Source: Candidatus Omnitrophota bacterium
GTDB taxonomy: Bacteria; Omnitrophota; Gorgyraeia; Gygaellales; Gygaellaceae
Length of the DNA: 64,000 nt
NCBI GenBank assembly: GCA_018400015.1
Contig: JAGYNB010000001.1
Coordinates: forward strand, 198,815-262,814
Direction: 5' to 3'
In this document: positions 1 to 57,168 of the stretch, piece after piece
Numbering within the stretch: the first letter of the stretch is position 1
Layout of the letters: each line of letters starts with the position of its first letter
Translations under genes and position numbers: made by a program
The notes under the pieces: generated by a model
Databases searched by the model: none
Told to the model about the DNA's origin: nothing
Seen by the model: only the letters and a program-made list of their open reading frames with translations

Positions 1-25
1 AGAATCGCAATAAGCATAAATTGAT

Positions 26-1465
26 ATGAGCGTAAAATTAAAACCAGATTTAGGCTCAATTGAGAAAGCGCCACTTATACGCAAATTCACGGTTTTGTTT
101 ATCGTAATGAGCCTTTTGCCTTTTTTGGTTATTGCATATTTATTTACTCAATATAATAAAGGCGGTTCTATTAATATCGATCAGGATATTCTGCTTATTC
201 TTTTATTCTTGGTTGGTGCAGGAACGTTAGCTGGTTTTTATGGAATGAGGCGTTCAATAGTGAAGATTCAGCAGTTGACAAAATCAGCAACTAAGATTAT
301 TTCCAAGGATATGCCTGGGTTGGGGGAAATTAAGCAAGAACAGAGTGAAATAAATCAGCTTACACACGCGTTTAATTCTGTAACTCAGAATTTAGAGAAT
401 AATATAAAGCGTCTTGAAGCATCTAAGCGTACAATGCAGGATGTTTTATCAAAGCTGGCACTTGGTCTTTCCTCTGCAAAGACCATGGAGACTTTTTTAG
501 ATTTAATTGTTGAGATAACTGCTAATGCATTAGATGCAAAAAGAGGCGTATTGATGCTTTTGGATGAAAAAGGGGAAGCGCTTTATGTAAAAGTCTCATC
601 AGGCTTTGATATGCAGTTTGCCAATATTAAACTTAAAGTTGGCGAAGAAGCTCCCGGCTGGGTGGCAAAGCATAAGAAACCTCTTTTGATTCCTGCTGTT
701 AATAGCCAGGCGCAGAGAATAGAAGAAGCAGACCCTTTTGCACCGCCTTTATTGAGTGCCCCTATGCTATATCAAGATAGGCTTATCGGTGTTTTGACCG
801 TAGTGGGAAAAATTACCGGAGGGAATTTTCAAGAAGACGAACTTATTATAATTCAAAATTTGGCAACTCAAACCGCGGTTGCAGTTGAAAACGATAAGCT
901 TCATAAAGATGCAGAAAAGACTTATATTGAGACAATATCAGCACTTGCTATGGCAGTTGAAGCAAGAGATCCTTATAGCAGAGGCCACTCTGACAGGGTA
1001 GCTAAATATTCTATTGCTGTTGCTAAAAAGCTAGGTTTGGCCGAAGATGAAATTAACGATATAAAACATGCGGGAGAGCTTCATGATGTGGGTAAAATCG
1101 GCATAAGTGATGAGATATTACGTAAGCCCAGTATTTTGAATGATGAAGAAATAAAAGTAATGCATAAACATCCGATCATTGGCGAAGGTATTGTTAAGCC
1201 GGTAAAAAGTTTAGCTCGTTTGTGCGAAACAATAAGACATCATCATGAATGGATTGACGGTAGCGGTTATCCGGATGCTTTAAAGGGCAATGAGATATCA
1301 ACTGCAGCAAAGATTATGGCAGTTACCGATAGTTTTGATGCAATGACAACAGATAGGCCTTATAGAAAAGGTTTGAGCGCTGACCAGGCCAAAGACGAGA
1401 TTAGAAAGTATATAGGCATTAGATACGATAAGAAAATTGCAGAGGCATTTCTAGAAGTAGTTTAA
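26..1465 (+). CDS. HD-GYP domain c-di-GMP phosphodiesterase with N-terminal TM/HAMP and GAF-like sensor region
   Basis: 479-aa ORF. HD..H motifs and HHEWIDGSGYP signature are visible in the translation. The N-terminal hydrophobic segment is followed by a GAF-like region. Confidence 0.8.
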   Translation: MSVKLKPDLGSIEKAPLIRKFTVLFIVMSLLPFLVIAYLFTQYNKGGSINIDQDILLILLFLVGAGTLAGFYGMRRSIVKIQQLTKSATKIISKDMPGLGEIKQEQSEINQLTHAFNSVTQNLENNIKRLEASKRTMQDVLSKLALGLSSAKTMETFLDLIVEITANALDAKRGVLMLLDEKGEALYVKVSSGFDMQFANIKLKVGEEAPGWVAKHKKPLLIPAVNSQAQRIEEADPFAPPLLSAPMLYQDRLIGVLTVVGKITGGNFQEDELIIIQNLATQTAVAVENDKLHKDAEKTYIETISALAMAVEARDPYSRGHSDRVAKYSIAVAKKLGLAEDEINDIKHAGELHDVGKIGISDEILRKPSILNDEEIKVMHKHPIIGEGIVKPVKSLARLCETIRHHHEWIDGSGYPDALKGNEISTAAKIMAVTDSFDAMTTDRPYRKGLSADQAKDEIRKYIGIRYDKKIAEAFLEVV

Positions 1466-10864: not shown

Positions 10865-12821
10865 GACACTGGTTATTGTAGAATCCCCTACCAAGGCAAA
10901 GACTATTCAGGGCATTTTGGGAAAAGACGTTAAGACTATACCGAGCATGGGCCACATTATTGACCTTCCACAAAAGCAAATTGGGATTGATATCGAAAAA
11001 GATTTTAAACCGACCTATACGGTTTTAAAAGGCAGGGCCAAGGTGTTACAACAAATAAAAAAAGCTGCCAAGACCGCTGATAAGATTTATTTGGCTACTG
11101 ACCCTGATAGAGAAGGAGAAGCCATAGGCTGGCACATAAAAGAAAAATTAAAACTGAAAAAGCAGTATTTTAGGGTTATTTTACATGAAATAACAAAGCC
11201 GAGTATAAAAGAGGCTTTTGCTAATCCTGAGGAATTAGATATCAATAAAGTAAAGGCACAGCAGGCGAGACGAATTTTAGACAGGCTTGTGGGATATTTT
11301 TTAAGTCCGTTTTTATGGCGAAAAATCGCAAGGGGTTTAAGCGCAGGAAGAGTTCAGTCCGTTGCTTTGCGTCTTATTGTAGAAAGAGAACGTAAAATTG
11401 CAGAATTTAAGCCAGAAGAGTATTGGCAGATAGAAGCACAATTAAACAAGAAAAAGTCTAAGGAAACATTTACTGCAAAGTTAAACAAAATAAATGGCGA
11501 GGATTATAAATTAAAAAACGAATCGCAAACTAATAAAATATTAGAAGACATAGAAAAGAATACTTTTAAGGTCGTTAGGGTAGTCAATAAGCAGAAAAAA
11601 CGTTATGCTCCGGCGCCGTTTATTACCAGCAGCCTCCAGCAAGAGGCATTCAATAAGCTTAGGTTTATTGCCAAAAGGACAATGATGATTGCCCAACAAC
11701 TTTATGAGGGAATCGAAATTGGGAAAGAAGCTCAGGCGGGTCTTATAACCTATATGAGAACAGATTCCACAAGAGTTTATCAACCTTTTATTGAACATGC
11801 TAGAGGTTTTATCGCTAACAATTTTGGCAAAGAATACGTTCCTGAAAAACCCAATTATTTTAAAGTGAAGAAATCTGCTCAGGGGGCGCATGAAGCAATC
11901 AGACCTACATCTTTAGAGAAAACACCTGAGTCCATAAAACAATTTTTAACCCAGGATCAGTTTAAACTGTATCAGCTTATCTATAATAGATTTTTAGCCA
12001 GCCAGATGAATCCTGCTAAGTTTAATGCTACAAGCGTTGCGATAAACGCAGGTCCTTATGAATTCAGCGCAAGCGGTCAGACTTTATTGTTTGATGGATT
12101 TTTAAAGCTTTATAAAGTTGACAGTGAAGAAAAAGAAGACGATGATAAAAGTAAGCTTCCAGAATTAAAGGAAGAGGAGATACTGGATCTTGATAAATTG
12201 ATTCCGCAGCAGAGCTTTACAAAACCTCCCGCCAGATTTTCCGAAAGCTCACTTATTAAAACTCTTGAAGAGCTAGGAGTAGGAAGACCTTCTACGTACG
12301 CACCGATTATCCAGACATTGGTGTTTCGTAACTATGTCCACAGACTTAAAGGTTACTTTGAGGCAACGCAGCTTGGAATAAAGGTAAGTGATATGTTAGT
12401 GGACAATTTTCCTAAGGTTATGGATGTTAAGTTTACCGCTAACCTTGAAGAAGAGCTTGATCAGGTAGAAGAAGGGACAATCGATTATATTAAAGTGCTT
12501 AATGATTTTTACAGGCCGTTTAAAGAAAACTTAGATTATGCAAAAGAGCACGTAAAGAAAGAAGTGATTACTGCTGATGAGAATTGCCCAGAGTGCGGCA
12601 GCGTGCTTGTGTATAAATGGGGCAGGCGCGGCCGTTTCTTGAGCTGTTCAAAATTTCCCACATGCAAATTTTCAAAGTCTATTACCACGAAAGTTAAATG
12701 TCCTTCTGAAGGTTGTGACGGAGAATTAGTCGAGAGGCGCTCTAGAAGAGGAGTTTTTTATGGATGCTCGAAATTCCCCAAATGTAGATACATTACGGAT
12801 AAACTTCCCCAAGTGGAGTGA
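10857..12821 (+). CDS. topA: DNA topoisomerase I
   Basis: 654-aa ORF with a TOPRIM domain, the active-site Tyr region and C-terminal Cys4 zinc ribbons. Confidence 0.95.
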   Translation: MSKTLVIVESPTKAKTIQGILGKDVKTIPSMGHIIDLPQKQIGIDIEKDFKPTYTVLKGRAKVLQQIKKAAKTADKIYLATDPDREGEAIGWHIKEKLKLKKQYFRVILHEITKPSIKEAFANPEELDINKVKAQQARRILDRLVGYFLSPFLWRKIARGLSAGRVQSVALRLIVERERKIAEFKPEEYWQIEAQLNKKKSKETFTAKLNKINGEDYKLKNESQTNKILEDIEKNTFKVVRVVNKQKKRYAPAPFITSSLQQEAFNKLRFIAKRTMMIAQQLYEGIEIGKEAQAGLITYMRTDSTRVYQPFIEHARGFIANNFGKEYVPEKPNYFKVKKSAQGAHEAIRPTSLEKTPESIKQFLTQDQFKLYQLIYNRFLASQMNPAKFNATSVAINAGPYEFSASGQTLLFDGFLKLYKVDSEEKEDDDKSKLPELKEEEILDLDKLIPQQSFTKPPARFSESSLIKTLEELGVGRPSTYAPIIQTLVFRNYVHRLKGYFEATQLGIKVSDMLVDNFPKVMDVKFTANLEEELDQVEEGTIDYIKVLNDFYRPFKENLDYAKEHVKKEVITADENCPECGSVLVYKWGRRGRFLSCSKFPTCKFSKSITTKVKCPSEGCDGELVERRSRRGVFYGCSKFPKCRYITDKLPQVE

Positions 12822-12825
12822 ATAA

Positions 12826-13686
12826 ATGCAGCGTTATCTTGAAAAATTCTTGAGATATCTTGAAATAGAGAAAAATTATTCTCCCCACACTCTGCTTAAT
12901 TATAGTATAGATCTTCGGGATTTTACAGCGCATACTGCTGAAACGCCTTTAGAAAAAGTAAATTATTTAGTATTGAGAAAATATCTTGCATACTTAAAAG
13001 AAAGAGGATTAAAAAACAGGTCTATTGCCAGAAAGCTTGCAAGTATTAGAAGTTTTTTTCGTTTTCTAACCAGAGAAGGCTATATTAAGGAAAATCCTAC
13101 ACTTGTACTTTCAAGTTTAAAAATGGATAAAAATCTGCCGCATTTTCTGACAGAAGAACAGATGAACGATCTTATTCAAGCACCGGATTTGAAAAGCAAG
13201 TTTGGTTTAAGGGATAAGGCTATAATAGAGTTATTGTATTCGACAGGTATGAGAATAAGCGAGATGACAGGGTTGGATGTTGATTCGGTAGATTTTATAT
13301 CTGGCGTAGTTAAGGTCGCCGGTAAAGGCAAAAAAGAACGTCTTGTCCCTGTAGGCGATAAAGCAATAGGGGCGTTAAGAGAATATCTTGATAAGCGTAA
13401 AAATCAGTCAAAGAAACTTTTCCTGAATAAGAATAACACGCCTTTAGGAGCAAGAGGGGTAAGGGTTGTTTTGGATAAGTATATACATCTAATGGCGTTA
13501 AAAGAGAAAATATCTCCTCATACCTTGAGGCATTCCTTCGCAACACATTTATTAAACAGAGGAGCTGATTTAAGAAGCGTTCAGGAATTATTAGGCCATG
13601 CAAATATAGCTACAACCCAAATCTATACACACCTTACAACTCAGCGTTTAAAGGAAATATACAACAAGGCGCATCCTCGGGCATAA
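12826..13686 (+). CDS. xerC: tyrosine recombinase XerC/XerD family
   Basis: The catalytic R...HxxR...Y signature is present (HTLRHSFATHLL...IYTHL). It lies in the housekeeping dprA-topA-xer synteny. Confidence 0.75.
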   Translation: MQRYLEKFLRYLEIEKNYSPHTLLNYSIDLRDFTAHTAETPLEKVNYLVLRKYLAYLKERGLKNRSIARKLASIRSFFRFLTREGYIKENPTLVLSSLKMDKNLPHFLTEEQMNDLIQAPDLKSKFGLRDKAIIELLYSTGMRISEMTGLDVDSVDFISGVVKVAGKGKKERLVPVGDKAIGALREYLDKRKNQSKKLFLNKNNTPLGARGVRVVLDKYIHLMALKEKISPHTLRHSFATHLLNRGADLRSVQELLGHANIATTQIYTHLTTQRLKEIYNKAHPRA

Positions 13687-14929: not shown

Positions 14930-15978
14930 AAAAATATCTTTACCTTTTGGCAACAGAAAAGATTGATGGTTTCCCCGCTAACATTATCAAAGTAATAATG
15001 TTTATTGTTTCGTTTTTTTACCAGTTCGGGATCTATATAATCAAAAGTCTTTATAAGTATAAAATTATAAGACAGGATAAAGTAAAAGCCAAGGTTATAA
15101 GTGTTGGTAATTTAACTTTAGGAGGGACGGGAAAAACACCGCTGGAGGAGATTGTTGCGGATTATTTGCTGTTAAAAGGCAAGAATGTAGTAATCTTGAC
15201 TAGGGGTTACAAGGCGATAGATTCAAGTAGCGATGAGGCAATGGTTCTTAAGAACAATCTGGGAATTATTATTATCGAGGGAAGAGATAGGGTTATTGCT
15301 GCAAAAAAAGCAATCAGTAAGTATAATTGTGATACAATCTTACTTGATGATGCGTTTCAGCACTGGAGGTTGTTTCGCGATTTAGATATCATTACTATTG
15401 ATTCCACTAATCCTTTTGGTAACGGGTTTACTATTCCCAGGGGTATATTACGCGAACCAATAAAAGCCCTTGAGCGTTCAGATTTGGTTGTTTTTACAAA
15501 AACCGACAGGTGCAAAGATATTAACGCATTAGAAAATCAGATATCCGCAATAAATAATAAAGTCGCTTTTGTCTACACTAAACATCAGGGTTTGGATTTT
15601 ATAAACATTGTTAATGATAACAGGTTGCATTATCTAGATTTTCCTGATAACGAAGATATATGTGTTGTTTGTGGTATTGCAGATCCGGAATATTTTCAGC
15701 ATACACTTAAGAGTATGGGGTTTAGATTGGGTTTAAGTTTTGTTTTTTCAGACCACCATCATTATACTAAAGAGGACATCTTTAAGATTATAGAAAAGTG
15801 TAAAGATAAAAAAATAAAAAGAATTGTTTTTACTCAGAAAGATGCTGTAAAGCTGTCATTTCTGAAGAAATTTTCTAAGGATATAAATATAGAATTATGG
15901 TTTTTAAGAATCAAGATGAAACTTATCAAAAACGAAGATGTGTTTTTTAAAAAACTGGATAGCTTATATATTGGTTAA
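14926..15978 (+). CDS. lpxK: tetraacyldisaccharide 4'-kinase
   Basis: A P-loop VGNLTLGGTGKTP and the LpxK fold are present. The gene overlaps waaA by 4 nt. Confidence 0.85.
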   Translation: MKKYLYLLATEKIDGFPANIIKVIMFIVSFFYQFGIYIIKSLYKYKIIRQDKVKAKVISVGNLTLGGTGKTPLEEIVADYLLLKGKNVVILTRGYKAIDSSSDEAMVLKNNLGIIIIEGRDRVIAAKKAISKYNCDTILLDDAFQHWRLFRDLDIITIDSTNPFGNGFTIPRGILREPIKALERSDLVVFTKTDRCKDINALENQISAINNKVAFVYTKHQGLDFINIVNDNRLHYLDFPDNEDICVVCGIADPEYFQHTLKSMGFRLGLSFVFSDHHHYTKEDIFKIIEKCKDKKIKRIVFTQKDAVKLSFLKKFSKDINIELWFLRIKMKLIKNEDVFFKKLDSLYIG

Positions 15979-17872
15979 GGTACTTTCGGTAATATTTTGT
16001 CTTATGAGCGCAGAATTTGCGCTTTTGGTCGCAAGAACAATTGCCAGGATAGTTTATCCTTTTAGCTTTAAATACAAGACTATTGCCTACGGTAATATTA
16101 GGAAGGCATTTGTAGGTATCAAATCTCAACGAGAAATGAGAGTTATACTTAAAAAATCATTTATAAACCTAATACAGGATGTTGTTGAATGCCTTAGGTT
16201 TCCAAGGCTCGATTCAAATTATATAAAAAAGTACATCAGGTTAGAGGGGATTGAAGATATCGATAAGGCTTTGGAAGAAAAACATGGAGTAATATTGGTA
16301 GGCAGTCATTTTGGCAGCTGGGAAATGGCTAATGTTGTTTTCTCGTTATTAGGTTATGACCACAATGTTTTTGCGAAAGAACAAAAAAAGTTCAATAAGC
16401 TTTTTTTATATCTTAACGAACTAAGAAAAAGCAAGGGCACCAAGGTATTTTTGAATTCAAATGCTCTTTTAGGGATTGCTCGCGCGCTTAAGCATAATAA
16501 GGTTGTGGCCATGGTAGCTGACCATGGCGGTAAAGGTGCAACGACAGTGCCATTTTTTAATATTCCTACACCTACGCCGTCAGGCGCAGTAAGGCTTGCT
16601 TTAAGATTTGGTTCCCCTGTTCTTTTAGGCAGTATAACTAGGATTAACGGCCCTTATCATTTATTGAAGTTGGAACCCGTATCTATAAAAAAGTTAGATT
16701 CTTTAGATGAGAGCCTAAAAGTTAACTTAACCAGAATAAATTCTAAGCTAGAGGAGTTGATAATTAGCAGCCCTCAAGATAATCTGTGGCGTTACAGAAG
16801 ATGGAAGTACTCGCCATTTAAAAAAGTTTTGATTTTAAGCGATGCAAAGCAGGGGCATTTAAATCAATCCAAGGCTGTTTTGGATATGATAAAAGCTGAG
16901 CATACAAGCATATCTTCAAATATTATTGAAGTAAAGTTTAAAAGTAATATTTTAAGATTATTAGCAAGGACCGCCTCTTTATTTATATGTAATTATAGTA
17001 TAGGTTCGTTGGGGATTCTCAAATTAGCTCTTAGAAAAGAGTCATTTGAGGCTTTATTAAGTTCGCAGGCAGATATTATTATTTCTGCGGGGAGCTCTTT
17101 GGCTGCTGTAAATCTTTATTTAAAAAGAGAGAACCAGGCTAAATCCATATGTTTGATGAATCCGGGGTTCTTAAGAAGATCTTTATTTGATTTGATCATA
17201 GTCCCGGTGCATGATCGCTTGCTTCATAAAACCAATACCGTTCTAACAGATGCGGCTGTTAATCGTATTAGCGAAGGTTATCTTGTTGAAAAAGGCGCTA
17301 AATTGCAAAAAGCCTTAAAAGAAAATAGTATTAATTTAAAAACGCAAGTCCTGGGAGTATTTTTTGGAGGGGACAGTAAATCGTTTAAGTATGAAAAACA
17401 TGATCTTGTTGGTTTTTGCCAGCAGATAAACCAATTTTTAGAAAATAGTGGATTTGACATGCTTTTTACTACTTCCCGGAGAACATCTTCGTGGCAGGAG
17501 GAAGTTTTTGAAGAGCAATTAAAAGGTCATGCCAAATTCATGATTGTTGCCAATAAACATAATCTTGAATATGCGTTCGGGGGAATTCTGGCAGCAAGTC
17601 GTATCGTTTTGGTAAGTGCCGAGAGCATTTCTATGGTCTCAGAAGCAGTATCAAGTCTCAAGAAAGTAGTGGTTTTTCTCCCAAGTGTTTTGCGTTTAAG
17701 AAATCGCCACCAGACTTTTCTGGATAATCTTATAAATAAGGGTTTAGTTATAGTTGCCGATGAGAATAATCTTAACAGTGTTTTAAATTCTGTTTTATCC
17801 AAAGATTATATGAGCTTGCAAATTAATGACCGCGATGTTATTACAAATGCTTTAAGGAAAAAGATTTTATGA
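15938..17872 (+). CDS. lipid A biosynthesis LpxL/HtrB-family acyltransferase fused to a C-terminal ELM1/DUF1022-like GT-B-fold domain
   Basis: The N-terminal ~300 aa resemble lauroyl/myristoyl acyltransferases. A further ~340-aa C-terminal domain of unknown function follows. The true start may be the internal Met near 16004. Confidence 0.6.
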   Translation: MCFLKNWIAYILVKVLSVIFCLMSAEFALLVARTIARIVYPFSFKYKTIAYGNIRKAFVGIKSQREMRVILKKSFINLIQDVVECLRFPRLDSNYIKKYIRLEGIEDIDKALEEKHGVILVGSHFGSWEMANVVFSLLGYDHNVFAKEQKKFNKLFLYLNELRKSKGTKVFLNSNALLGIARALKHNKVVAMVADHGGKGATTVPFFNIPTPTPSGAVRLALRFGSPVLLGSITRINGPYHLLKLEPVSIKKLDSLDESLKVNLTRINSKLEELIISSPQDNLWRYRRWKYSPFKKVLILSDAKQGHLNQSKAVLDMIKAEHTSISSNIIEVKFKSNILRLLARTASLFICNYSIGSLGILKLALRKESFEALLSSQADIIISAGSSLAAVNLYLKRENQAKSICLMNPGFLRRSLFDLIIVPVHDRLLHKTNTVLTDAAVNRISEGYLVEKGAKLQKALKENSINLKTQVLGVFFGGDSKSFKYEKHDLVGFCQQINQFLENSGFDMLFTTSRRTSSWQEEVFEEQLKGHAKFMIVANKHNLEYAFGGILAASRIVLVSAESISMVSEAVSSLKKVVVFLPSVLRLRNRHQTFLDNLINKGLVIVADENNLNSVLNSVLSKDYMSLQINDRDVITNALRKKIL

Positions 17873-19962
17873 ATATACTGCAGATTTTACCACAGCTTAA
17901 TGTAGGCGGGGTAGAGACCGGGGTGGTTGATTTATCTCGCCTTCTTGTCGAAGACGGCCACAAGGTTATTGTTGTTTCTTCAGGAGGGATGTTAGTTAAT
18001 GATTTAGAGAATATTGGGGTAAAACATTATACATTGGAAGTACACAAGAAAAATCCTTTCATAGCCATAAAGACAATACCGGAATTAGTTAAGATTGTAA
18101 AAGAAGAGCAGGTAGAGGTTATTCATGGCCGTTCCAGAGTGCCGGCCTGGATTGGTTTTCTTGTATCGTTCAAAACGGGTATTAGTTTTATTACTACATG
18201 TCATGGTTATTATTCCAAACATTTTTTCAGTAGAGTTATGGCGTTGGGTAAATATATAATCTGTCCCAGCAATATTATTGCGCGGCATATGGTAGAAGAT
18301 TTTTCTGTCAAAAGAGATAATATAGTCATAATCCCCAGAGGAGTTGATATCTCAAAATATTCTTTTTGCAGGCCCGACGAAAAAAATAAGCAGGAATTTA
18401 CTATAGGCATTATTGGAAGACTTACTCCATTAAAAGGGCATGTATATTTTTTAAATGCCGCAGCTAAACTGCACAGAATCATTCCTAATTTGCGCATTTG
18501 GATAGTGGGCGACGCAGCTAAGAATAAGCAAGATTACAAACAGGATTTAAAAACTCTTTGTAAAAAGCTGGGCATAGCCGAACGAGTGGATTTTTTAGGG
18601 CACCAAAAGGATATTGCCTCGATTCTTTCTAAAATGAATGTTTTGGTATTGTCTACTATTACTGAAGAGGCTTTCGGAAGGGTGATAATTGAGTCGCAGG
18701 CAGCAGGGGTACCGGTTGTTGCTACCAGGGTTGGAGGCGTTATCGATATAATAAAAGATAACGAAACAGGTATTTTGGTTAATCCTGCGGATTCAGAAGC
18801 GATCAAGGATGCGGTAATAAGGCTTTATAATGATGCCAGTCTTGCTAATAACTTTGCTTTAAATGCAAGGAGTCATGTTGAAAAAAACTTTAACCTGGAG
18901 AATATGTATCAAAAGACTCTTTCGGTTTATAAGAAAACCGTAGTCAAAAAAAGAATTCTTGTTATTAAGTTAACCGCCCTGGGGGATGTTATTTTAGCTG
19001 TACCGAGTCTGCGCGCTATCAGGAAAAAGTTTAAAAACCATACAATTACATGTCTGGTAAATAAGAATTTTAGTTCTCTTTTGTGGGACTGTCCTTATAT
19101 AGATGAATTGATTGTTGACGACAGGGATATTCAGCATAAGGGTTTTATTGGTCTGTTGCGTTTGGCTAAAAAGATTATTTATTACAGATTCGATATATCA
19201 GTTGATTTACAGAATAATAAGCGCAGCCATTTACTTGCTTTTTTAGGGCTTATTCCGAAAAGGTACGGATTTTTTATAAAGAAGAAATTAAGTTTTCTTG
19301 TCAATCATTTGGCACGTCTGCCTCAGCAGGCAGAACATCCTGTCAGGCATCAGTTGAATATATTGAGGCTTTTGAATATAGAAGAGATTGACGATTCTCT
19401 GGAATTATGGGTAAATAAAGATGCAAGGTTATTTGTTGATAAGTTCTTAGAAGAGAATTGGTTGACCCCAGAGCAAAAATTTATAGGCATAAATATTGGC
19501 GCTAGTGTTCGCTGGAAGTCAAAATGTTGGCCGGTTGATCATATTGTCAGGCTTTGCGACATGGTTAAGAATCGTAATTTAAGAGTTGTGTTTACGGGTA
19601 CTAAGTCAGAGCTTAATATAGCTAAGGAGATATCTGAGAATTTAAAGGATTTCAAGCCGATTATTGCCTGCGGTCAGACTAATTTAGCGCAGCTTATTGC
19701 TCTTATTGCCAGGTGTAGTGTTTTTGTCAGCGCAGACTCTGCTCCTATCCATATTGCTTCTAGTTTGAATGTTCCTTTTGTTGCTCTTTTTGGGCCGACT
19801 GATCCTTCAAAACATCTGCACCCTAAGGGTCAATACAGGCTTTTGAGAAAAGATTTACCGTGCAGCCCATGTTATAGATCAAAATGCAATAAGAATATAT
19901 GTATGCAAAATATATCGCCTAAAGAGGTTTTTGATGCAATTGAGGAGCTATTGAATTCATGA
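17869..19962 (+). CDS. bifunctional glycosyltransferase: N-terminal GT4 (WaaG-like) fused to C-terminal GT9 heptosyltransferase-like domain
   Basis: The 697-aa ORF carries a GT4 EX7E-type region (ITEEAFGRVIIESQAAGVPVVAT). The C-terminal half has GT9 hallmarks (VIKLTALGDV, FGPTDP). Confidence 0.7.
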   Translation: MNILQILPQLNVGGVETGVVDLSRLLVEDGHKVIVVSSGGMLVNDLENIGVKHYTLEVHKKNPFIAIKTIPELVKIVKEEQVEVIHGRSRVPAWIGFLVSFKTGISFITTCHGYYSKHFFSRVMALGKYIICPSNIIARHMVEDFSVKRDNIVIIPRGVDISKYSFCRPDEKNKQEFTIGIIGRLTPLKGHVYFLNAAAKLHRIIPNLRIWIVGDAAKNKQDYKQDLKTLCKKLGIAERVDFLGHQKDIASILSKMNVLVLSTITEEAFGRVIIESQAAGVPVVATRVGGVIDIIKDNETGILVNPADSEAIKDAVIRLYNDASLANNFALNARSHVEKNFNLENMYQKTLSVYKKTVVKKRILVIKLTALGDVILAVPSLRAIRKKFKNHTITCLVNKNFSSLLWDCPYIDELIVDDRDIQHKGFIGLLRLAKKIIYYRFDISVDLQNNKRSHLLAFLGLIPKRYGFFIKKKLSFLVNHLARLPQQAEHPVRHQLNILRLLNIEEIDDSLELWVNKDARLFVDKFLEENWLTPEQKFIGINIGASVRWKSKCWPVDHIVRLCDMVKNRNLRVVFTGTKSELNIAKEISENLKDFKPIIACGQTNLAQLIALIARCSVFVSADSAPIHIASSLNVPFVALFGPTDPSKHLHPKGQYRLLRKDLPCSPCYRSKCNKNICMQNISPKEVFDAIEELLNS

Positions 19963-33342: not shown

Positions 33343-33430
33343 GGAGGAGTGGCAGAGTGGTCGAATGCGGCGGTCTTGAAAACCGTTGAGGCGCAAGTCT
33401 CCAGGGGTTCGAATCCTCTCTCCTCCGCCA
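33343..33430 (+). tRNA. tRNA-Ser (anticodon UGA)
   Basis: Hand-folded. Acceptor ggaggag/ctcctcc, anticodon loop cttgaaa, long variable arm, encoded CCA. Confidence 0.85.
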
Positions 33431-33456
33431 TTATTTAAAAAAAAGGAGGGATAAGC

Positions 33457-33735
33457 ATGGAAGAATTGACGATCTTTGATTTTATGAAGGATTTTGTTCT
33501 TTGGATCAGCCCGGTTGTGTTTGCAGTGGGTGCGCTTCTTATTTTATCTCCTAAGATATTCGGCAAAATAGAAGGTTCTTTAGGCAAGGAAATCGGCGGG
33601 ATTAAAAGAAGAGTTGTTCCTAAATTGGAGATGAATATTGAGAGTTTTCAGAACTGGATGTTGAAGAAAAACAATCTTGTCGGTCTTATTTTGGTAGTTT
33701 TGTCTTTTGTTTTCTTTCTGCTGCTTAAAAAGTAG
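33457..33735 (+). CDS. small membrane protein, possibly TatA/TatB-like
   Basis: 92-aa ORF lying between the tRNA-Ser genes. It has a TM helix followed by an amphipathic segment (FGKIEGSLGKEIGGIKRR). A GGAGG RBS is present. Confidence 0.3.
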   Translation: MEELTIFDFMKDFVLWISPVVFAVGALLILSPKIFGKIEGSLGKEIGGIKRRVVPKLEMNIESFQNWMLKKNNLVGLILVVLSFVFFLLLKK

Positions 33736-33745
33736 TCTTTTCACT

Positions 33746-33833
33746 GGAGAGATGCCAGAGTGGTCGAATGGGCCTGTCTCGAAAACAGGTAGGTGCTTAT
33801 AGTGCCTCGCAGGTTCAAATCCTGCTCTCTCCG
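33746..33833 (+). tRNA. tRNA-Ser (anticodon CGA)
   Basis: Hand-folded. Acceptor ggagaga/tctctcc, anticodon stem cctgt/acagg, loop ctcgaaa, long variable arm. Confidence 0.85.
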
Positions 33834-33850
33834 AAAAACATAAAATTCAT

Positions 33851-33939
33851 GGAGAGGTCGCGTAGCCCGGTTTAGCGCGCACGCCTGGAGAGCGTGTGAC
33901 TCACAAGGTCCGAGGGTTCGAATCCCTCCCTCTCCGCCA
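33851..33939 (+). tRNA. tRNA-Ser (anticodon GGA)
   Basis: Hand-folded. Acceptor ggagagg/cctctcc, anticodon stem cacgc/gcgtg, loop ctggaga, long variable arm, encoded CCA. Confidence 0.85.
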
Positions 33940-37918: not shown

Positions 37919-38010
37919 GGAGAGGTGGCTGAGTGGCCGATAGCAGTTGCCTGCTAAGCAATTGGTCCGGGTAACTGGACCCCTGGGTTCGAATCCCAGC
38001 CTCTCCGCCA
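37919..38010 (+). tRNA. tRNA-Ser (anticodon GCU)
   Basis: Hand-folded. Acceptor ggagagg/cctctcc, anticodon stem gttgc/gcaat, loop ctgctaa, long variable arm, encoded CCA. Confidence 0.85.
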
Positions 38011-41296: not shown

Positions 41297-41569
41297 TCCC
41301 CCGTAGCTCAGTTGGTAGAGCGAGTGGCTGTGTAATAAAACGCAGCTTCTGCGGGAAACCGTGGTTGAAACAGCGGGCTAATTCAGGGAAGTCCTTTAAA
41401 AAGGATAATCCTGAGCTAAGTCGTCACTAAAGTGGCGTAAATGTGCAGAGACTATATACCCGCCTCCCGTAACGTTAAGTCGTGGGAGAAGAGATAGTCC
41501 AAGTCCGGTAGTAATATCGGGTTACTTGTAACCACCAGGTCCGAGGTTCGAGTCCTCGCGGGGGAGCCA
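41297..41569 (+). tRNA. tRNA-Asn (GUU) interrupted by a group I intron in the anticodon loop
   Basis: The exons fold into a canonical tRNA: acceptor tcccccg/cggggga, D-arm agctcagttggtagagc, T-arm ggttcgagtcc identical to bacterial tRNA-Asn, discriminator G and encoded CCA. The spliced anticodon loop reads ct-GUU-aa. Confidence 0.75.
41332..41528 (+). ncRNA. group I self-splicing intron (IC3/Azoarcus-like, ~197 nt)
   Basis: Conserved core elements are visible: GGGAAACC P2 tetraloop region, R-like gcagAGACUAtata and S-like AAGAgAUAGUCC. The exon ends in U, which pairs with the G of an internal guide gcagc. The intron ends in G. Boundaries are ±2 nt. Confidence 0.7.
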
Positions 41570-42335: not shown

Positions 42336-42372
42336 ATTCACGAATAAACGTTTGACAATATTTATTAAATTT

Positions 42373-42428
42373 ACAGGCGATGGAGTTCGCCATTAACCGC
42401 CTCAACAAGGCTGATAACTCCTTACAAT
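42373..42428 (+). promoter_or_regulatory. fluoride riboswitch (crcB RNA motif)
   Basis: The sequence aGGCGATGGaGTTCGCCattAACCGCCtcaacaaGGCTGATaACTCCTtAC matches the crcB motif consensus. It lies directly upstream of crcB. Confidence 0.8.
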
Positions 42429-42448
42429 AAAAAAGGAGGAATTAGTTT

Positions 42449-52023: not shown

Positions 52024-52995
52024 ATGGTTAAAAAAAAGCCTCTGTTTATCATATTGATTATAGATGTAATTTTTATTGCCTTGTTTGTTAATATTCGTTC
52101 TATTCCCCGTTTAGCTATCTGGAATATAAAGACAATAGAGGATAAGATTTTTTTTAGCTCAAGCAGCAATAAGTCCGATGATTTTAATTTTGAGAAAAAA
52201 ACAAGCGAGATCGGTTTGTTTAATGAGGAAATAATCGAAGTTATATCCGATAAAGAAACAGATTTAGAAAAGATTGAAAAGATATTATTGTTTTTAAAAA
52301 CAAATTATATCGATACATTTAGACCAAAAGATGATCGTCTAGTCTGGGGCAGTCCTTTATACCTAAAAAAGCAAGTTGAAAATGGAGCAAGAGGAATTAA
52401 TTGCTTTCATTTTTCCATACTTTTTAATTCTTACGTAAGCAGCTTAGGTTATAGAAGCAGGATTTGGGCTTTGGAGGGAGATGATTATTTAGAGGGTTTT
52501 GGACATACGGTTGTGGAAATATTCTTGTCGGATTTAGATAGATGGGTGGTTTTTGATCCGAGTTTTTCAATATATTTTTCTGTTAACAATATGCCTATTG
52601 GACTTTTAGATTTGAAATATCATATTGCATATAACAAAGATGATATTGGCATACACGGTTTTCCTCGATATTTCAGTAGACAGCCAATCATAGAATTATA
52701 CCGTAGATTGACACAACTTGTGCTGCTAAGAAGTTCTTCCGATTTTTCATACAAATTAAATGATTCGAGATTAAGATGGGGAGGGTTATTTTTTATATCG
52801 GGGCTGTTAAGCAGGCTTCCTTATGAGGCTCAAAGAGGGTTAGAAATGCTTTTAGGAAGAAAAGAATATTTTTATCAATTAAAAGAAAACGATAATTTAG
52901 CGTTTCAGGTATTAGCGGTAAGAATGTTTATTTTGATTTTATTAATTGCCAATATTTATATTGTTTTGTTTTATCTATCGAAAAAATGGCATTGA
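52024..52995 (+). CDS. membrane-anchored transglutaminase-like cysteine protease-fold protein
   Basis: An N-terminal TM helix is present. The Cys (GINCFHF), His (GHTVVE) and Asp (VVFDP) triad appears in the right order. Confidence 0.5.
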   Translation: MVKKKPLFIILIIDVIFIALFVNIRSIPRLAIWNIKTIEDKIFFSSSSNKSDDFNFEKKTSEIGLFNEEIIEVISDKETDLEKIEKILLFLKTNYIDTFRPKDDRLVWGSPLYLKKQVENGARGINCFHFSILFNSYVSSLGYRSRIWALEGDDYLEGFGHTVVEIFLSDLDRWVVFDPSFSIYFSVNNMPIGLLDLKYHIAYNKDDIGIHGFPRYFSRQPIIELYRRLTQLVLLRSSSDFSYKLNDSRLRWGGLFFISGLLSRLPYEAQRGLEMLLGRKEYFYQLKENDNLAFQVLAVRMFILILLIANIYIVLFYLSKKWH

Positions 52996-54161
52996 AGATA
53001 GCGTTATATTATCCTTATATACATTTAAGAAGCGGTATTGAGAAAACCATTCTTGAAATTCTTAAACGAAGCAGGCATGATTGGACGGTATTTACCAATC
53101 TTTTTGAAAAGAATTCTACCTATTCAGAATTGAATAGTTTTTCTTCCCGGATAGTACAATTAAAAAAGATTTCAGTTAAACGCAGTTACTTCAATACGCT
53201 TTTGACCGCATTTACAATTTTTAAACAAAAGCTTCCCTTGGAATCATTTGATATTTTATGGGTTCACAATGAAGGATTAGGAAGTTTGATTAATTTTAAA
53301 AATAGGGGAAAACCAAGTATATGTTTTTGCCATACGCCATTAAAGATAGTTTATGATAAATCTTTAAGAACAAGCTATCTTGCAAAAAATTCCCATAAAC
53401 TGCTTTTTTATTTGTTGTTTTCTTCTTTATTCAAATTGTTAGACAGAAAAGCGTTCAGTTTGTATGAATGGTGTTTTTGCGTAAGTAATGAAGTTAAAAA
53501 AAGAGTCGTAGAAAACAGACTTTTCTCAGAAAGTAAAATAGGGTTAGTTTATCGGGGCGCCGATTTGGATAAATCTTCTTTAAATGTTAATTATGGTAAT
53601 TATTTCTTTCATCCTACGCGGATTAAGTGGTGGAAGAATATAGAATTATCAATCGAGGCATTCAGAATATTTAAAAGTAAGTGCTCAGGAGCAAATGATT
53701 TTAAATTGGTTATTTCTGGACAGGTATATCCGACATCGCAGTCATATTATAAGAAGCTGCTTAAACTTATTTCTTCAGACAGGGATATTGTTTTTCTTGT
53801 TAATCCCAGCCAGGAGCAGATCAATGATCTGTACTTAAATTGTCTTGCGGTTTTATCTACAACTATGAATGAGGATTTTGGTTTGACGGTATTGGAATCA
53901 TTCTCTTTTGCCAAGGCGGTAATTGCAATAAACAGAGGAGGGCCTAGTGAGATAATTAGCAATGGCAGGACAGGGCTATTGTCCGACAGCAGTGCTAGAA
54001 ATTATGCAGAATGCATGATAAAATTAGCAAATGACAAGAGAAATACAATTTTAATGGGTAAGTCTGCGAGAGAAGTCATTGTTAAATATGGCTGGGGCAG
54101 TTTTATAAAAGAAATGGACAATTTTTTGGACAATTTTATTAAACGCAGAAGGGTTAATTGA
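52986..54161 (+). CDS. glycosyltransferase family 4
   Basis: 391-aa ORF with a GT-B fold and C-terminal GT4 motifs (EDFGLTVLESFSFAKAVIA). Confidence 0.75.
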   Translation: MALKIALYYPYIHLRSGIEKTILEILKRSRHDWTVFTNLFEKNSTYSELNSFSSRIVQLKKISVKRSYFNTLLTAFTIFKQKLPLESFDILWVHNEGLGSLINFKNRGKPSICFCHTPLKIVYDKSLRTSYLAKNSHKLLFYLLFSSLFKLLDRKAFSLYEWCFCVSNEVKKRVVENRLFSESKIGLVYRGADLDKSSLNVNYGNYFFHPTRIKWWKNIELSIEAFRIFKSKCSGANDFKLVISGQVYPTSQSYYKKLLKLISSDRDIVFLVNPSQEQINDLYLNCLAVLSTTMNEDFGLTVLESFSFAKAVIAINRGGPSEIISNGRTGLLSDSSARNYAECMIKLANDKRNTILMGKSAREVIVKYGWGSFIKEMDNFLDNFIKRRRVN

Positions 54162-54847
54162 TGAAGCGGGTACAAAAAATACTTAGTAATTGCGGGTTTT
54201 GCTCCAGAAGGAAAGCAGAAGAACTTATTGAACAGGGAAGAGTCAAGATTGGTGGCAACGTTGTTTCTCTTGGCGATAAAGCTCAGGAAACCGACCCTAT
54301 CTATGTAGACGGTAAGTTGGTGTCCAAGCAAGAAAAGATATATTTGTTGTTTAACAAACCTATAGGTTGCGTTACGGCTGTAAATGACAAGCGTTTTAAG
54401 ACAGTTATGGATTATATAAAAATAAAAACAAGGGTTTTTCCCGTAGGCAGGCTCGATTATGCAACTTCAGGGTTATTGCTTTTGACTAATGACGGTGATT
54501 TTGCAAATCGTATTATGCATCCTAGGTATGAGATGAATAAAACTTATCTTGTAGAGTTGGATAAGCCCGTAGATAATGAGAAAATAAGATTAATAGAGCA
54601 GGGCATTGAGTTGGAAGATGGCAAAACCTCTCCTTCTAAGATAAAGCTTATTCAAAATAATAGTCTTAAGATAACCATACATGAAGGCAAGAACAGGATT
54701 GTCAGAAGAATCTTTAAGAAAATGGGTTTTCGCGTAAAAAGACTTCATAGGCTTGCTATAGGAAGACTTACGCTCGGGGATTTAAAAAAAGCAAAATACA
54801 GGGTTTTAACTGATGCGGATAAGAATAAGATTTTTCTAAAAACATAG
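54158..54847 (+). CDS. pseudouridine synthase, RsuA/RluB family (S4 + catalytic domain)
   Basis: The S4-domain N-terminus and the catalytic Asp motif GRLDYATSGLLLLTNDG are present. Confidence 0.85.
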   Translation: MMKRVQKILSNCGFCSRRKAEELIEQGRVKIGGNVVSLGDKAQETDPIYVDGKLVSKQEKIYLLFNKPIGCVTAVNDKRFKTVMDYIKIKTRVFPVGRLDYATSGLLLLTNDGDFANRIMHPRYEMNKTYLVELDKPVDNEKIRLIEQGIELEDGKTSPSKIKLIQNNSLKITIHEGKNRIVRRIFKKMGFRVKRLHRLAIGRLTLGDLKKAKYRVLTDADKNKIFLKT

Positions 54848-54879: not shown

Positions 54880-55992
54880 ATGTTAAAAGAACATGAGTGC
54901 ATTTTAAGATGCTGTAAGTTTTCTCCATCAGGAGAAGATATAGAAAGGATAAAAGAAATTCCTTTTTTTTCTTTTAACTGGTCTAGCGTTATTTGGGAAC
55001 TTGGTCGTCAGCAGGTTTTGCCATTAGTTTATTTTAATCTCAATAGAATAATTCAGGATAAGAAATTGGATTTTACTTTGCCCGCTGTACTTAAAAACAA
55101 ATATTATTCCACAGCAGCGGTCAATATGAAATTATGGCAGGAATACCGTAGTATTAATGAGTTATGTATTCAGAGAAAAATCAGGATTGTTGGCTTAAGA
55201 GGTATTATTTTTTCTTATACGCTTTATCCTGTTAATGCGTTACGAAATTTAAGAGATATAGATATATTAGTTCAGGAGAAAGATATCTTTTCAATAAGAG
55301 ATATTCTCATTTTAAACGGATATCGGCATGTTCCTTCGCCAGGTTTTTTTGCTTACGATATCAAAAATGAATGCGGAACTAATTTTGTTAAAAATTGCGG
55401 AGCAATAAATATTATCCTTAATGTTCATTGGTCCTTGGCTTCAAGACGTCCGTATAGTCTGTTTTTGCCCGAATTGTGGGGTAGGGTTAAAGAAATAAAA
55501 ATTGATAATGTTGTTGTATCGGTTTTATCAGCAGAAGATAATGTTTTGTCGTTAGCTCTGCATTTAAGAAGACATTGCCGTTCCTTGTGCTTAAAATATA
55601 TATTCGACATAAAAGAGGTTATCGAAAAAGAAAAGGATATTGATTGGGATTATATATACAAGTATTCAAGAATAAATCATATCAGAAATACCGTTTATTT
55701 CTCGCTTTATATGTGTAGAACGCTTTTTAATACAATGAATATAGAGAATCAAGTTATAAGATTTAACCCCGGAGCGCTTAGAAAGAAATTAATAAGGTTA
55801 ATTATTAATAAAGAGAATTACTTTTACCATAACTCTTTTAAAGGAATCATGTTAAGATTATTGCTTTTTGATAGAGTGATAGATATTGTTGTTTATTTAT
55901 TTCGTGTTAGCTTTATTGAGAGATTGGTATATAATAAATTGTTTACAGCTGGATTTTTGAGAAAACTGTTTTCAAAGCGGACAAAGTCATGA
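54880..55992 (+). CDS. putative nucleotidyltransferase of the PF14907-like family seen in kinase-associated lasso/RiPP clusters
   Basis: 370-aa ORF. Conserved acidic residues in an LRDIDILV region are consistent with a minimal nucleotidyltransferase fold. The assignment rests on recollection of the family. Confidence 0.45.
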   Translation: MLKEHECILRCCKFSPSGEDIERIKEIPFFSFNWSSVIWELGRQQVLPLVYFNLNRIIQDKKLDFTLPAVLKNKYYSTAAVNMKLWQEYRSINELCIQRKIRIVGLRGIIFSYTLYPVNALRNLRDIDILVQEKDIFSIRDILILNGYRHVPSPGFFAYDIKNECGTNFVKNCGAINIILNVHWSLASRRPYSLFLPELWGRVKEIKIDNVVVSVLSAEDNVLSLALHLRRHCRSLCLKYIFDIKEVIEKEKDIDWDYIYKYSRINHIRNTVYFSLYMCRTLFNTMNIENQVIRFNPGALRKKLIRLIINKENYFYHNSFKGIMLRLLLFDRVIDIVVYLFRVSFIERLVYNKLFTAGFLRKLFSKRTKS

Positions 55993-55994
55993 TA

Positions 55995-56023
55995 TTGACA
56001 TATAAATATGGATATGATACTAT
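55995..56023 (+). promoter_or_regulatory. sigma-70-like promoter for the RiPP-like operon
   Basis: TTGACA (55995-56000), a 17-nt spacer and TACTAT (56018-56023) lie ~40 nt upstream of the 56061 start. Confidence 0.35.
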
Positions 56024-56060: not shown

Positions 56061-56990
56061 ATGAAGTGTTATAGAAAAAAATGTAAGAAAGTTTTATTTT
56101 CGGTATTGTTTTATTTAATGGTAAGCGTTGCTTATGTTAATTATGGTTTTACCCAGGGGGAAGTGGTGGAGGAGTTAGAATTTAAGCCGCAAATAGGTAG
56201 CGTGTGGGATTATAAGGCGAGTTTTGAGATTACTTCCAAGCGTCAATTTAAAGATCTATCACAGGATGTAATAGATAGTTTTGGTCCTGCTAGGGACTTT
56301 CAAATGTTTGCCGATATTCTTTTTTCTGCTGAGGTTGAAAACGAGAGAGATCCCACAAGATTAACTTTGACTTATAAAGATATTGATATGAGGTTAGTTG
56401 TCAATGGGCAAGAGTTGTCGCCTCCAGATTCTATTACAAATAAAGGTTTAGAGGGGAAAGCTATTGAGCTTTCTATATTTACTCGAGATAATAGCGTTAT
56501 TGAGGATTTTAGCGGAATAAATGATGAATTGCTTCCGTATGCTAAAAATATGTTGAATATTGCTAAGTTTTTCTATGATTTTCCTTCTCAAACAGTAAAA
56601 ATGGGAGATAAATGGAATAGCGATAATAAATTTAAATTAGCGCCTATCGGGTCACTAGAAATCATACAAATAAGTAAAAATGAATATTCTTTTAAGGCAG
56701 TCAAGAATATTAACGGGCAAGATTGTGCCTATGTAAGAAAAGATTCATCGATAACACAGGAATCAGCGGCTGTTGAGAATAATACTATAGTGAGTGGTCG
56801 CGGTGATGGATATCTGACGACGGATATATATTTTGATTTAGATGACGGTAAATTGGTAAGGTCTGAGATAGAATCTTCCGTAGATTCGTCTTTTGATATT
56901 GCAGGCGATGTTTTAGGACAGGGTAAATTATTGGTTAATACTGTTCAGAAGTCGAGGATCGAAATGTTAGCGGGGAGAAATAATGAGTAA
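56061..56990 (+). CDS. secreted hypothetical protein; its stop overlaps the start of the precursor-like peptide gene
   Basis: 309-aa ORF with a signal-peptide-like N-terminus. It overlaps the next gene by 8 nt (aATGAGTAA). Confidence 0.4.
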   Translation: MKCYRKKCKKVLFSVLFYLMVSVAYVNYGFTQGEVVEELEFKPQIGSVWDYKASFEITSKRQFKDLSQDVIDSFGPARDFQMFADILFSAEVENERDPTRLTLTYKDIDMRLVVNGQELSPPDSITNKGLEGKAIELSIFTRDNSVIEDFSGINDELLPYAKNMLNIAKFFYDFPSQTVKMGDKWNSDNKFKLAPIGSLEIIQISKNEYSFKAVKNINGQDCAYVRKDSSITQESAAVENNTIVSGRGDGYLTTDIYFDLDDGKLVRSEIESSVDSSFDIAGDVLGQGKLLVNTVQKSRIEMLAGRNNE

Positions 56991-57168
56991 AAACCGGGCT
57001 AAAGCCAAAATAATTAAGGAAAAAAAAGTTTTTGTTGAACCGTGCATGGAAAAGCAGAATTATATATCTGATTTTGGCGCTACAAGTACTGGAAGTATAT
57101 TAGTAGTTACTTCTGTTGTAAGCGGCGTAGTAGGCGGTGTTTTATTCGGTGCTTGGGTTTCTTCGTAG
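56983..57168 (+). CDS. candidate RiPP precursor peptide (61 aa; charged leader, Gly/Ser/Thr/Val-rich core, C-terminal Ser-Ser)
   Basis: MSKNRAKAKIIKEKKVFVEPCMEKQNYISDFGA | TSTGSILVVTSVVSGVVGGVLFGAWVSS. It lies immediately upstream of the HprK-like kinase and RRE genes. The core contains no Asp/Glu. Confidence 0.5.
   Translation: MSKNRAKAKIIKEKKVFVEPCMEKQNYISDFGATSTGSILVVTSVVSGVVGGVLFGAWVSS

Follow-up and report, generated by a model that had tools for sequence, protein, structure and literature searches.

What does a short open reading frame (ORF) encode when it lies directly 5′ of an HprK-like gene, in a cluster that combines leader-processing proteins of the lasso peptide type with two radical S-adenosylmethionine (rSAM) enzymes? 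The question is raised by a 61-codon ORF in a 64,000-nucleotide stretch of DNA from Candidatus Omnitrophota bacterium (assembly GCA_018400015.1, contig JAGYNB010000001.1, positions 198,815 to 262,814 of the forward strand), called the window here. A preliminary description, made from the nucleotide sequence, had proposed this ORF as a candidate precursor peptide with a Ser-Ser C-terminus of the kind that paeninodin-type kinases phosphorylate. Comparison of the window with two related loci suggests that the ORF is probably the precursor (A) peptide of a rare, cyclase-less and lasso-derived rSAM cluster for a peptide made on ribosomes and modified after translation (RiPP). The predicted product is not a lasso and is probably an undescribed modified peptide.

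The gene and its putative ribosome-binding site are located as follows:

56983..57168, forward strand: candidate precursor peptide gene, 61 codons plus stop, with homologues at L014:5348-5563 and L015:2688-2834 on two related contigs.

56974..56977, forward strand: Shine-Dalgarno-like GGAG, 5 nt 5′ of the ATG and inside the 3′ end of the upstream gene.

The ORF was found exactly as previously described, with its ATG (at 56983) overlapping the stop codon of the preceding gene. That gene (56061..56990), which codes for a DUF6263-like protein, ends with a TAA at 56988-56990, giving an 8-nt overlap with the peptide gene (ATGAGTAA), and the position of the GGAG inside it is consistent with translational coupling. 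The 61-residue translation is MSKNRAKAKIIKEKKVFVEPCMEKQNYISDFGATSTGSILVVTSVVSGVVGGVLFGAWVSS, with the stop codon at 57166-57168. Asp, Glu, Lys and Arg are all absent from the last 31 residues, and the peptide ends in Ser-Ser.

Very few homologous peptides could be retrieved. A word-indexed peptide search of 5.8 billion proteins matched only the window peptide itself, and a profile built from the three leaders discussed below retrieved only those three peptides from the same set. The relatives were reached through the neighbouring kinase-like protein, for which four homologues better than E = 1e-20 were found among 1.84 billion cluster representatives (P0003, P0004, P0005 and P0006), making a subfamily of five with the window protein. 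The contigs of the two nearest homologues, P0003 and P0004, are cut at the kinase and are uninformative on any upstream ORF. Contigs L014 and L015 carry the remaining two, P0005 and P0006, and here the same gene order is found with a small ORF in the identical slot: MKKNKSLPRSKQKKSFIEPRMYKEEYIANFGASATMAVVGGVVGAVVGAPVGLGAAAVGAAVGVVVGGVVW in L014 and MKKRLVQKKKKKPFMEPRMDKEQYLASFALSVTAVVVVAAAVGAVVAN in L015. In both loci with upstream DNA, the order is NTP_transf_5, DUF6263-like protein, small ORF, kinase-like protein, PqqD, rSAM, B2, B12-rSAM and ABC transporter. Hence, the position typical of an A gene, directly 5′ of the HprK-like gene, holds for the family, and conservation of a small ORF upstream of the kinase, which the preliminary description had put forward as a check, was observed in two of two informative loci. 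Distant kinase loci from broader contig scans had no peptide with either the motif or the tail described below.

Alignment of the three peptides separates a conserved N-terminal half from a variable tail. The conserved half follows the consensus KK-x-F-x-E-P-x-M-x-K-x-x-Y-[IL]-x-x-F-x-x-[ST]-x-T, with 11 invariant positions in window numbering (K12, K14, K15, F17, E19, P20, M22, K24, Y27, F31, and T36) and no indel between F17 and T36. The leaders of the window and L014 peptides are identical at 14 of 26 residues (54%; manual count from the alignment); the proteins flanking the peptide gene are 29-56% identical between loci (tblastn, two related loci), which puts the leader on a level with the best-conserved enzymes. 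The tails are unalignable and differ in length, the uncharged C-terminal runs spanning 31 (window), 46 (L014) and 26 (L015) residues.

Over the 26-codon leader block, the proportion of synonymous differences (pS) is 0.9-1.0, that is, synonymous sites are saturated, while the proportion of nonsynonymous differences (pN) is 0.21-0.33, giving a pN/pS of about 0.2-0.3. Saturated synonymous sites combined with a low pN indicate a translated gene under selection, and the peptide ORF is therefore a real, selected gene. Shine-Dalgarno-like sequences also precede the ATG in the other loci (GAGG in L014, AAGGGG in L015), and the ORF of each locus is either coupled to the preceding DUF6263-like gene or at most 8 nt away from it. 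It is the only conserved small ORF of the cluster. Moreover, a scan of the retrieved DNA (roughly 140 kb) gave no small ORFs with an acid-free Val/Gly/Ala-rich tail apart from these three, and no others in which a [FYW]x[ED]Px[MLI] motif is followed by such a tail. The best sigma-70-like site of the region (TTGACA-17-TACTAT with an upstream TG) was found at 55995..56023 on the forward strand, just 5′ of the DUF6263-like gene; sigma-70-like sites in the region are no more numerous than in shuffled sequences. The DUF6263-like gene may share an operon with the peptide gene and the genes downstream.

Within the peptide, the following parts can be delimited, with two alternative cleavage sites (models A and B):

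56983..57081, forward strand: leader region under model A (residues 1-33), with a Lys-rich N-terminus, the invariant positions K12 to F31 and an ungapped register with the BsfA leader.

57031..57048, forward strand: F17-V-E-P20-C-M22, in which F, E, P and M are invariant in the three peptides and which matches YxxPxL.

57082..57165, forward strand: core region under model A (residues 34-61, TSTGSILVVTSVVSGVVGGVLFGAWVSS), without Asp or Glu; the model B core starts at 57094 (S38).

57088..57090, forward strand: invariant Thr36, which would be leader residue -2 or else core residue 3, where BsfA has its phospho-acceptor Ser3.

The YxxPxL motif of lasso leaders is read by discrete B1 proteins, which are RiPP recognition elements (RREs), and occupies positions -17 to -12 (PMC10368454). 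The F-x-x-P-x-M found here after a Lys-rich stretch fits this motif, and we infer that the PqqD protein of the cluster reads the leader through F17-x-x-P20-x-M22. The bsfA gene of the Bradymonas lasso cluster, translated from PMC10368454, gives the leader MEMKKAKNKISRKLIYKKPQLTYHSTLAAIIR followed by a core starting with GTSGNEVDGS. MAFFT aligned BsfA with the three peptides gap-free from the motif onward, in the register Y(-17)=F17, P(-14)=P20, L(-12)=M22, R(-1)=A33, G1=T34, and S3=T36; this likeness is used as an argument on motif and register, not as proof of homology. F17 and T36 lie 19 residues apart in each of the three peptides, as do Y(-17) and Ser(+3) in BsfA.

Three cleavage sites were compared. 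The site first suggested (ATS|TGS, after S35) is the least supported because it relies on T34 at -2, which is not invariant (T/S/S in the three peptides), whereas T36 is. Model A, predicted from the YxxPxL register, places the motif at -17 to -12 and the cut after A33; the cores would then start with TSTG (window), SATM (L014) and SVTA (L015), and the conserved hydroxyls would stay in the product. Model B follows the rule of a Thr at -2 and predicts a cut after G37, which would leave the L014 and L015 cores without any hydroxyl. The leader would therefore end after A33 or after G37, and not after S35.

The tails have a distinctive composition. No Asp or Glu is found after D30 in the window peptide, nor in the tails of L014 and L015, and a lasso isopeptide ring is thus impossible, as had been noted. 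Val, Gly and Ala together make up 54% (window, residues 38-61), 89% and 93% of the three tails. In 73 transmembrane (TM) segments of the same loci, their means are 23-28% (local mean 25%) with a maximum of 47%, so that the tail composition is outside the range of all 73 segments, despite a G+C content of 36% in the window. The view of the N-terminal half as leader-like, with a Val/Gly-rich and acid-free half behind it, was thus borne out, the former being conserved and the latter variable. None of the three peptides matched a precursor family of NCBIfam or Pfam, even at E <= 10. Furthermore, the three cores have no Cys or aromatic residues in common, and the core of L015 consists of Val, Ala, Gly and Asn only. 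Without such shared residues, the known SPASM cross-linking chemistries have nothing conserved to act on. By elimination, the chemistries known from polytheonamide, namely C-methylation plus epimerisation or other C-H functionalisation, would be the most plausible modifications.

The genes surrounding the peptide gene were ordered from Pfam and NCBIfam scans, together with tblastn against L014 and L015:

52024..52995, forward strand: transglutaminase-core membrane protein, linked to the cluster in all three loci at different positions.

52986..54161, forward strand: glycosyltransferase of family GT4, likewise linked in all three loci at different positions.

54158..54847, forward strand: S4-domain pseudouridine synthase, between GT4 and NTP_transf_5, in the window's version of the cluster only.

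54880..55992, forward strand: NTP_transf_5 nucleotidyltransferase-like protein (PF14907, 137 bits), called N in lasso clusters.

56061..56990, forward strand: secreted or membrane-anchored protein of 309 residues with a weak DUF6263 match (Pfam E = 1e-4, below cut-off).

57251..58189, forward strand: HprK/PEPCK-fold P-loop protein ("kinase"), the next gene 3′ of the peptide.

58211..58531, forward strand: PqqD-family RRE, lasso B1-like (PF05402, 48 bits).

58531..59541, forward strand: rSAM enzyme with a Cys-rich, reduced SPASM-like C-terminal part (Pfam/NCBIfam).

59546..60013, forward strand: lasso B2-type transglutaminase-like leader peptidase (NF033537, 40.5 bits against a 33-bit cut-off).

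60032..61855, forward strand: B12-binding rSAM enzyme, best NCBIfam match TIGR03975.

61833..62627 (ATPase) and 62608..63465 (permease), forward strand: ABC-2 type exporter, conserved in L014 and L015.

63477..64000, forward strand: PMT_2 (GT-C) glycosyltransferase, cut by the window end and, in all three loci, linked to the cluster.

The conserved cluster amounts to a 13-gene set, and the presence in it of lasso-type B1 and B2 proteins with two rSAM enzymes agrees with the preliminary description, as does the likely relevance of the latter. The PqqD protein has the lasso RRE TbiB1 as its best solved relative and aligns with BsfB1 at E = 3e-9 (hhalign). In the B2 protein, Cys85 and His122 are invariant, and hhalign matches BsfB2 at E = 2.6e-5 across the Cys...His region; no sequence relative was found in the PDB. 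With 42-56% identity, the two rSAM enzymes rank with the best-conserved proteins of the cluster. Among solved structures, the SPASM-like enzyme has its best relative in SkfB, over the rSAM core only. The second enzyme has a clear Radical_SAM match in Pfam, while its B12-binding match (19 bits) is under the cut-off of 32.1; with TIGR03975, a family of RiPP C-methyltransferases, it scores 157.7 bits, under the cut-off of 281.85. The NTP_transf_5 protein keeps the invariant D-x-D, in the motif RDIDIL. No Asn_synthase match indicative of a lasso cyclase was found in the cluster genes or in the gene tables of L014 and L015, and the cyclase is also absent from ten scanned ORFs of at least 479 residues outside the cluster, two of which had no Pfam match at all. 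The missing cyclase already remarked on in the window is therefore a feature of all three loci.

In L014 and L015, the gene immediately upstream of that for the peptide codes for a homologue of the DUF6263-like protein (29-30% identity); the single-sequence AlphaFold model of the window protein, with a predicted local distance difference test score (pLDDT) of 35, is unusable. The transglutaminase-core, GT4 and PMT_2 genes were located in the relatives at L014:373-3215 and 11879-12883, and at L015:9112-12969. Their three different arrangements, always adjacent to the cluster, suggest a functional linkage. The pseudouridine synthase gene is probably unrelated to the cluster.

For the kinase-like protein, the analysis departs from the preliminary description, which had taken it to be of the paeninodin type and to act on the terminal Ser-Ser. 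In paeninodin and pseudomycoidin, the kinase phosphorylates a conserved C-terminal Ser (PMC9266682; PMC6993621), and the phosphate on this Ser then receives hexoses from a PsmN-type protein (PMC6993621). Here, the C-terminal Ser of the window peptide is not conserved, as the peptides of L014 and L015 end in Trp and Asn. In addition, lasso kinases need the catalytic motif H-K-D-D (PMC9266682). The window protein keeps H130, K151, and D168, with R169 in place of the second Asp. Among 62 relatives, the first three residues hardly vary and 54 have Asp at position 169, whereas the second Asp is lost in all five members of the subfamily, where R, H, R, S, and G are found, followed by an invariant Tyr. 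This may reflect a changed chemistry or a non-catalytic ATP-binding partner. The fold itself is of the HprK/PEPCK type: in the AlphaFold2 model (pLDDT 85), the only PDB matches of Foldseek at E <= 0.001 are PEPCK and HprK/P, and the protein matches BsfK at E = 1.8e-5. Relatives of the window protein match HprK_rel_A (61/62), HprK_rel_B (54/62) and ScmC (34/62), as well as hpr-ser.

Conserved hydroxyls are found across the three peptides at S/T34 and the invariant T36 only. BsfK acts with strict selectivity on core residue 3, where Thr is also accepted, and it needs B1 (PMC10368454). By analogy, any action of the kinase-like protein on the peptide would probably be at T36.

Two more observations concern kinase loci. 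In a metagenome-contig homologue (L002:22-857), a frameshift or assembly error just before the P-loop divides the gene into two ORFs that overlap (22..339 and 336..857). On a contig of the metagenome-assembled genome of Taishania pollutisoli (JBEBRN010000039.1; L012:2673-8929), a distantly related HprK-like kinase, its GDD motif intact, is accompanied by a PqqD-like protein, GT2 glycosyltransferases, an ABC exporter and an NTP_transf_5-like protein. No B2 protein, cyclase or obvious precursor was seen in the part of this locus that was read, and it thus represents another set of kinase, PqqD and N without a known substrate.

Taken as a precursor pathway, the cluster could work in the following manner. 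The PqqD-type RRE would bind the Lys-rich leader via F17-x-x-P20-x-M22. With the leader still attached, the SPASM-like rSAM enzyme and the B12-rSAM enzyme would modify the acid-free Val/Gly/Ala-rich core; the B12 enzyme would most likely C-methylate, and epimerisation or another C-H functionalisation would be most likely for the other enzyme, given that no Cys or aromatic residue is common to the cores. Any action of the HprK-like protein and NTP_transf_5 on the peptide would be directed at S/T34 and T36 rather than at the C-terminal Ser. The B2 Cys protease would then remove the leader after A33 (YxxPxL register) or G37 (Thr at -2), and the ABC-2 pump would export the product. The DUF6263-like envelope protein, GT4, PMT_2 and the transglutaminase-core protein would act later, in binding, immunity or glycosylation. 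Of all this, the comparison directly establishes that the gene is real and its leader under selection, that synteny is conserved across the three loci, which domains are present, with the catalytic residues of B2, of the rSAM enzyme and of NTP_transf_5, and that a lasso cyclase is absent; the enzymatic steps and the nature of the product are a proposal. A more specific and rather unlikely proposal is that the cluster defines a new RiPP class, with a linear, strongly hydrophobic Val/Gly/Ala peptide that is C-methylated and epimerised, membrane-active in the manner of gramicidin or polytheonamide, and matured by a cyclase-less lasso-derived B1/B2/K/N module; such a product might also bear a phospho-glycosyl head group on the junction Thr.

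Several observations weigh against identifying the ORF as a precursor. The support is all comparative, with no product observed, and conservation statistics are thin because the family has only three members in 5.8 billion proteins. The similarity of the leader to that of BsfA is at the level of the motif only (hhalign P = 0.034 over 18 columns, not significant). Each cleavage model has its own irregularity, with Gly or Ala at -2 in model A and a motif at -21 to -16, a non-canonical spacing, in model B. The missing Asp of the catalytic motif means that the kinase-like step may not be phosphorylation at all. No terminator or attenuator was found 3′ of the peptide ORF, where intergenic folds are no better than those of shuffled sequences. 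Finally, all three peptides score as TM segments by Kyte-Doolittle (maximum 2.1-2.6) with a positive N-terminus, and a conserved N-terminus with a loosely conserved hydrophobic tail is also what is expected of a tail-anchored protein.

This last point leads to an alternative that we consider unlikely, namely that the ORF codes for a small tail-anchored (N-in) membrane protein which is not a substrate but a structural, regulatory or immunity partner of the DUF6263-like protein or of the ABC-2 pump; the N-terminus would be a cytoplasmic protein-interaction motif and the tail a TM helix of the glycine-zipper type. The best 19-residue Kyte-Doolittle windows (2.22 in the window peptide, 2.09 in L014 and 2.58 in L015), the 8-10 Lys/Arg against 3-4 Asp/Glu of the N-terminal part, which fit the positive-inside rule, and the small-xxx-small spacing of the window tail (S44, G48, G52, and G56) are all in line with it, as is the tight coupling to an upstream envelope-protein gene (overlap or at most 8 nt) in three of three loci. 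The tail of L015 might be taken as too short for a TM helix, but the 19-residue window that scores 2.58 includes the conserved FALSVT. Hydropathy alone, which exceeds 2.0 in all three peptides, is compatible with the single-pass membrane peptide that the preliminary description had named as the rival; the composition of the tails, however, sets them apart from every one of the 73 local TM segments. The length of the uncharged tail, which ranges from 26 to 46 residues, also argues against an anchor. The L014 tail has sub-threshold Gly-zipper matches (14.9 bits, with 27 as the cut-off; E = 0.023), but none of the Pfam glycine-zipper families (Gly-zipper_OmpA, Gly-zipper_YMGG, Gly-zipper_Omp, and Rick_17kDa_Anti) was above threshold, and the window and L015 peptides had no glycine-zipper match at all. 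Lasso RREs read the very motif that is conserved here, and without the peptide the RRE, the B2 protein and two peptide-type rSAM enzymes of the conserved set have no encoded substrate, which argues against an ordinary anchor.

An intermediate explanation would keep the peptide as a precursor but confine its modification to the junction, the tail being a membrane anchor. The kinase-like protein, NTP_transf_5, GT4 and PMT_2 would first phosphorylate or nucleotidylate and later glycosylate the [ST]-x-T, giving a membrane-anchored phosphoglycopeptide. This accounts for S/T34 and T36 as the only hydroxyls common to the three peptides, and T36 corresponds in register to Ser3 of BsfA, the residue that BsfK phosphorylates with the help of B1 (PMC10368454); PsmN-type proteins, moreover, put hexoses on phosphoserine (PMC6993621). 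The linkage of GT4, PMT_2 and the transglutaminase-core protein to the cluster in three different arrangements points the same way, but it could also stem from the shared ancestry of three related genomes. Two rSAM enzymes with 42-56% identity would be left without a role, and the kinase-like protein is without the second Asp of its catalytic motif. We thus regard modification at the junction only as quite improbable. Still far less probable is a chance ORF, or a true substrate located elsewhere, for example the 309-residue DUF6263-like protein as target of the rSAM enzymes. Enzymes of the rSAM/SPASM type can act on whole proteins, as the anSME-type maturases do, and coincidence is harder to rule out in a tiny family. 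Against this stand the retention of the ORF in three diverged loci with saturated synonymous sites and a low pN, the Shine-Dalgarno-like sequence at all three copies, and the B2 leader peptidase and discrete RRE, which imply a short, leader-bearing substrate.

Elsewhere in the window, a match to the group I intron family (RF00028, 87 bits) was found at 41322..41521, within 41298..41569 on the forward strand, between tRNA-like halves (acceptor and D-arm on the 5′ side, T-arm and ...GCCA on the 3′ side) at which ARAGORN made no call. A fluoride riboswitch (RF01734, 56 bits) lies at 42367..42430 on the forward strand. Four tRNA-Ser genes (tga, cga, gga, and gct) occur within 5 kb, along with tRNA-Arg and tRNA-Lys (33343..33939 and 37919..38010, forward strand). 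Two fused envelope enzymes were also located at 15938..19962 on the forward strand, one combining a lipid A acyltransferase with an ELM1-like domain and the other GT4 with a GT9 heptosyltransferase; they mark a lipopolysaccharide-core locus and hence a Gram-negative host.

If the ORF is indeed the precursor, the lasso B1/B2 leader module and its K and N partners have been taken over for an entirely different chemistry, and the Val/Gly/Ala cores with a B12-rSAM and a second rSAM enzyme would represent a second, independent route to polytheonamide-like peptides. With few members and short cores of about 14-38 residues, the family lends itself to heterologous expression and mass spectrometry. The literature was searched for this gene combination and no description was found.

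The closest known systems are the clusters for phosphorylated lasso peptides, pade (paeninodin), psm (pseudomycoidin) and bsf (Bradymonas), which share the toolkit of A, K, B1, B2, N and an ABC exporter (PMC6993621; PMC10368454), with the A gene directly 5′ of K in psm and pade (PMC6993621). Their leaders, like those described here, have a Lys-rich N-terminus and a [YF]xxPx[LM] motif, and BsfA also has the Ser/Thr located 19 residues past the aromatic residue of the motif. Unlike in these three clusters, there is no cyclase and no Asp or Glu in the core, so that no isopeptide ring is possible; two rSAM enzymes are added, and the core is hydrophobic and Val/Gly/Ala-rich instead of polar. The C-terminal Ser of pade and psm is not conserved in the present peptides, and BsfK has ADD, while the kinase subfamily of the window is without the second Asp of H-K-D-D.

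On the side of the core, the likeness is to the polytheonamide-type proteusins (PoyA, the epimerase PoyD, and PoyB/C), which also have a long, acid-free Val/Gly/Ala core and a B12-rSAM enzyme with a second rSAM enzyme. In polytheonamide, the C-methylation of valine is carried out by PoyC. PoyD puts up to 18 D-residues into polytheonamides (PMC9266682). The present peptides differ from the proteusins in that no leader of the NHLP or Nif11 type is found, lasso-type B1 and B2 proteins handling the leader instead. The second rSAM enzyme is small and SPASM-like here, and the B12-rSAM enzyme is under the TIGR03975 cut-off.

The same combination of HprK-like protein, PqqD and rSAM/SPASM enzyme is found in the cassettes defined by Haft (SynChlorMet ScmC/D/E/F, GeoRSP, and HprK-related kinase A/B), a set of NCBIfam models that includes no lasso cyclase. 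The window rSAM enzyme matches ScmE (78.2), ScmF (79.5) and GeoRSP_rSAM (67.4), each with a cut-off of 400; the PqqD protein scores 22.4 with ScmD against 100, and the kinase 29.1 with HprK_rel_A and 19.4 with HprK_rel_B against 200. We know of no established precursor or product for the SynChlorMet and GeoRSP cassettes, and a search of the literature for GeoRSP and SynChlorMet gave nothing relevant. Compared with them, the cluster described here adds a B2 protein, a B12-rSAM enzyme and an identifiable precursor.

Finally, in the RRE-Finder survey, about 4,000 of 8,000 matches of the discrete lasso RRE model were without a peptidase and a cyclase, and about 300 co-occur with rSAM enzymes (PMC7470986). 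The PqqD protein of the window is of this lasso-RRE-plus-rSAM kind, which was listed among the false positives of the model and is uncharacterised (PMC7470986). The peptide family, if correctly identified, would provide a named precursor for such clusters, set aside until now as false positives (PMC7470986). Compared with the cases of that survey, the cluster of the window stands out in that the B2 protein is retained and a precursor family can be named.

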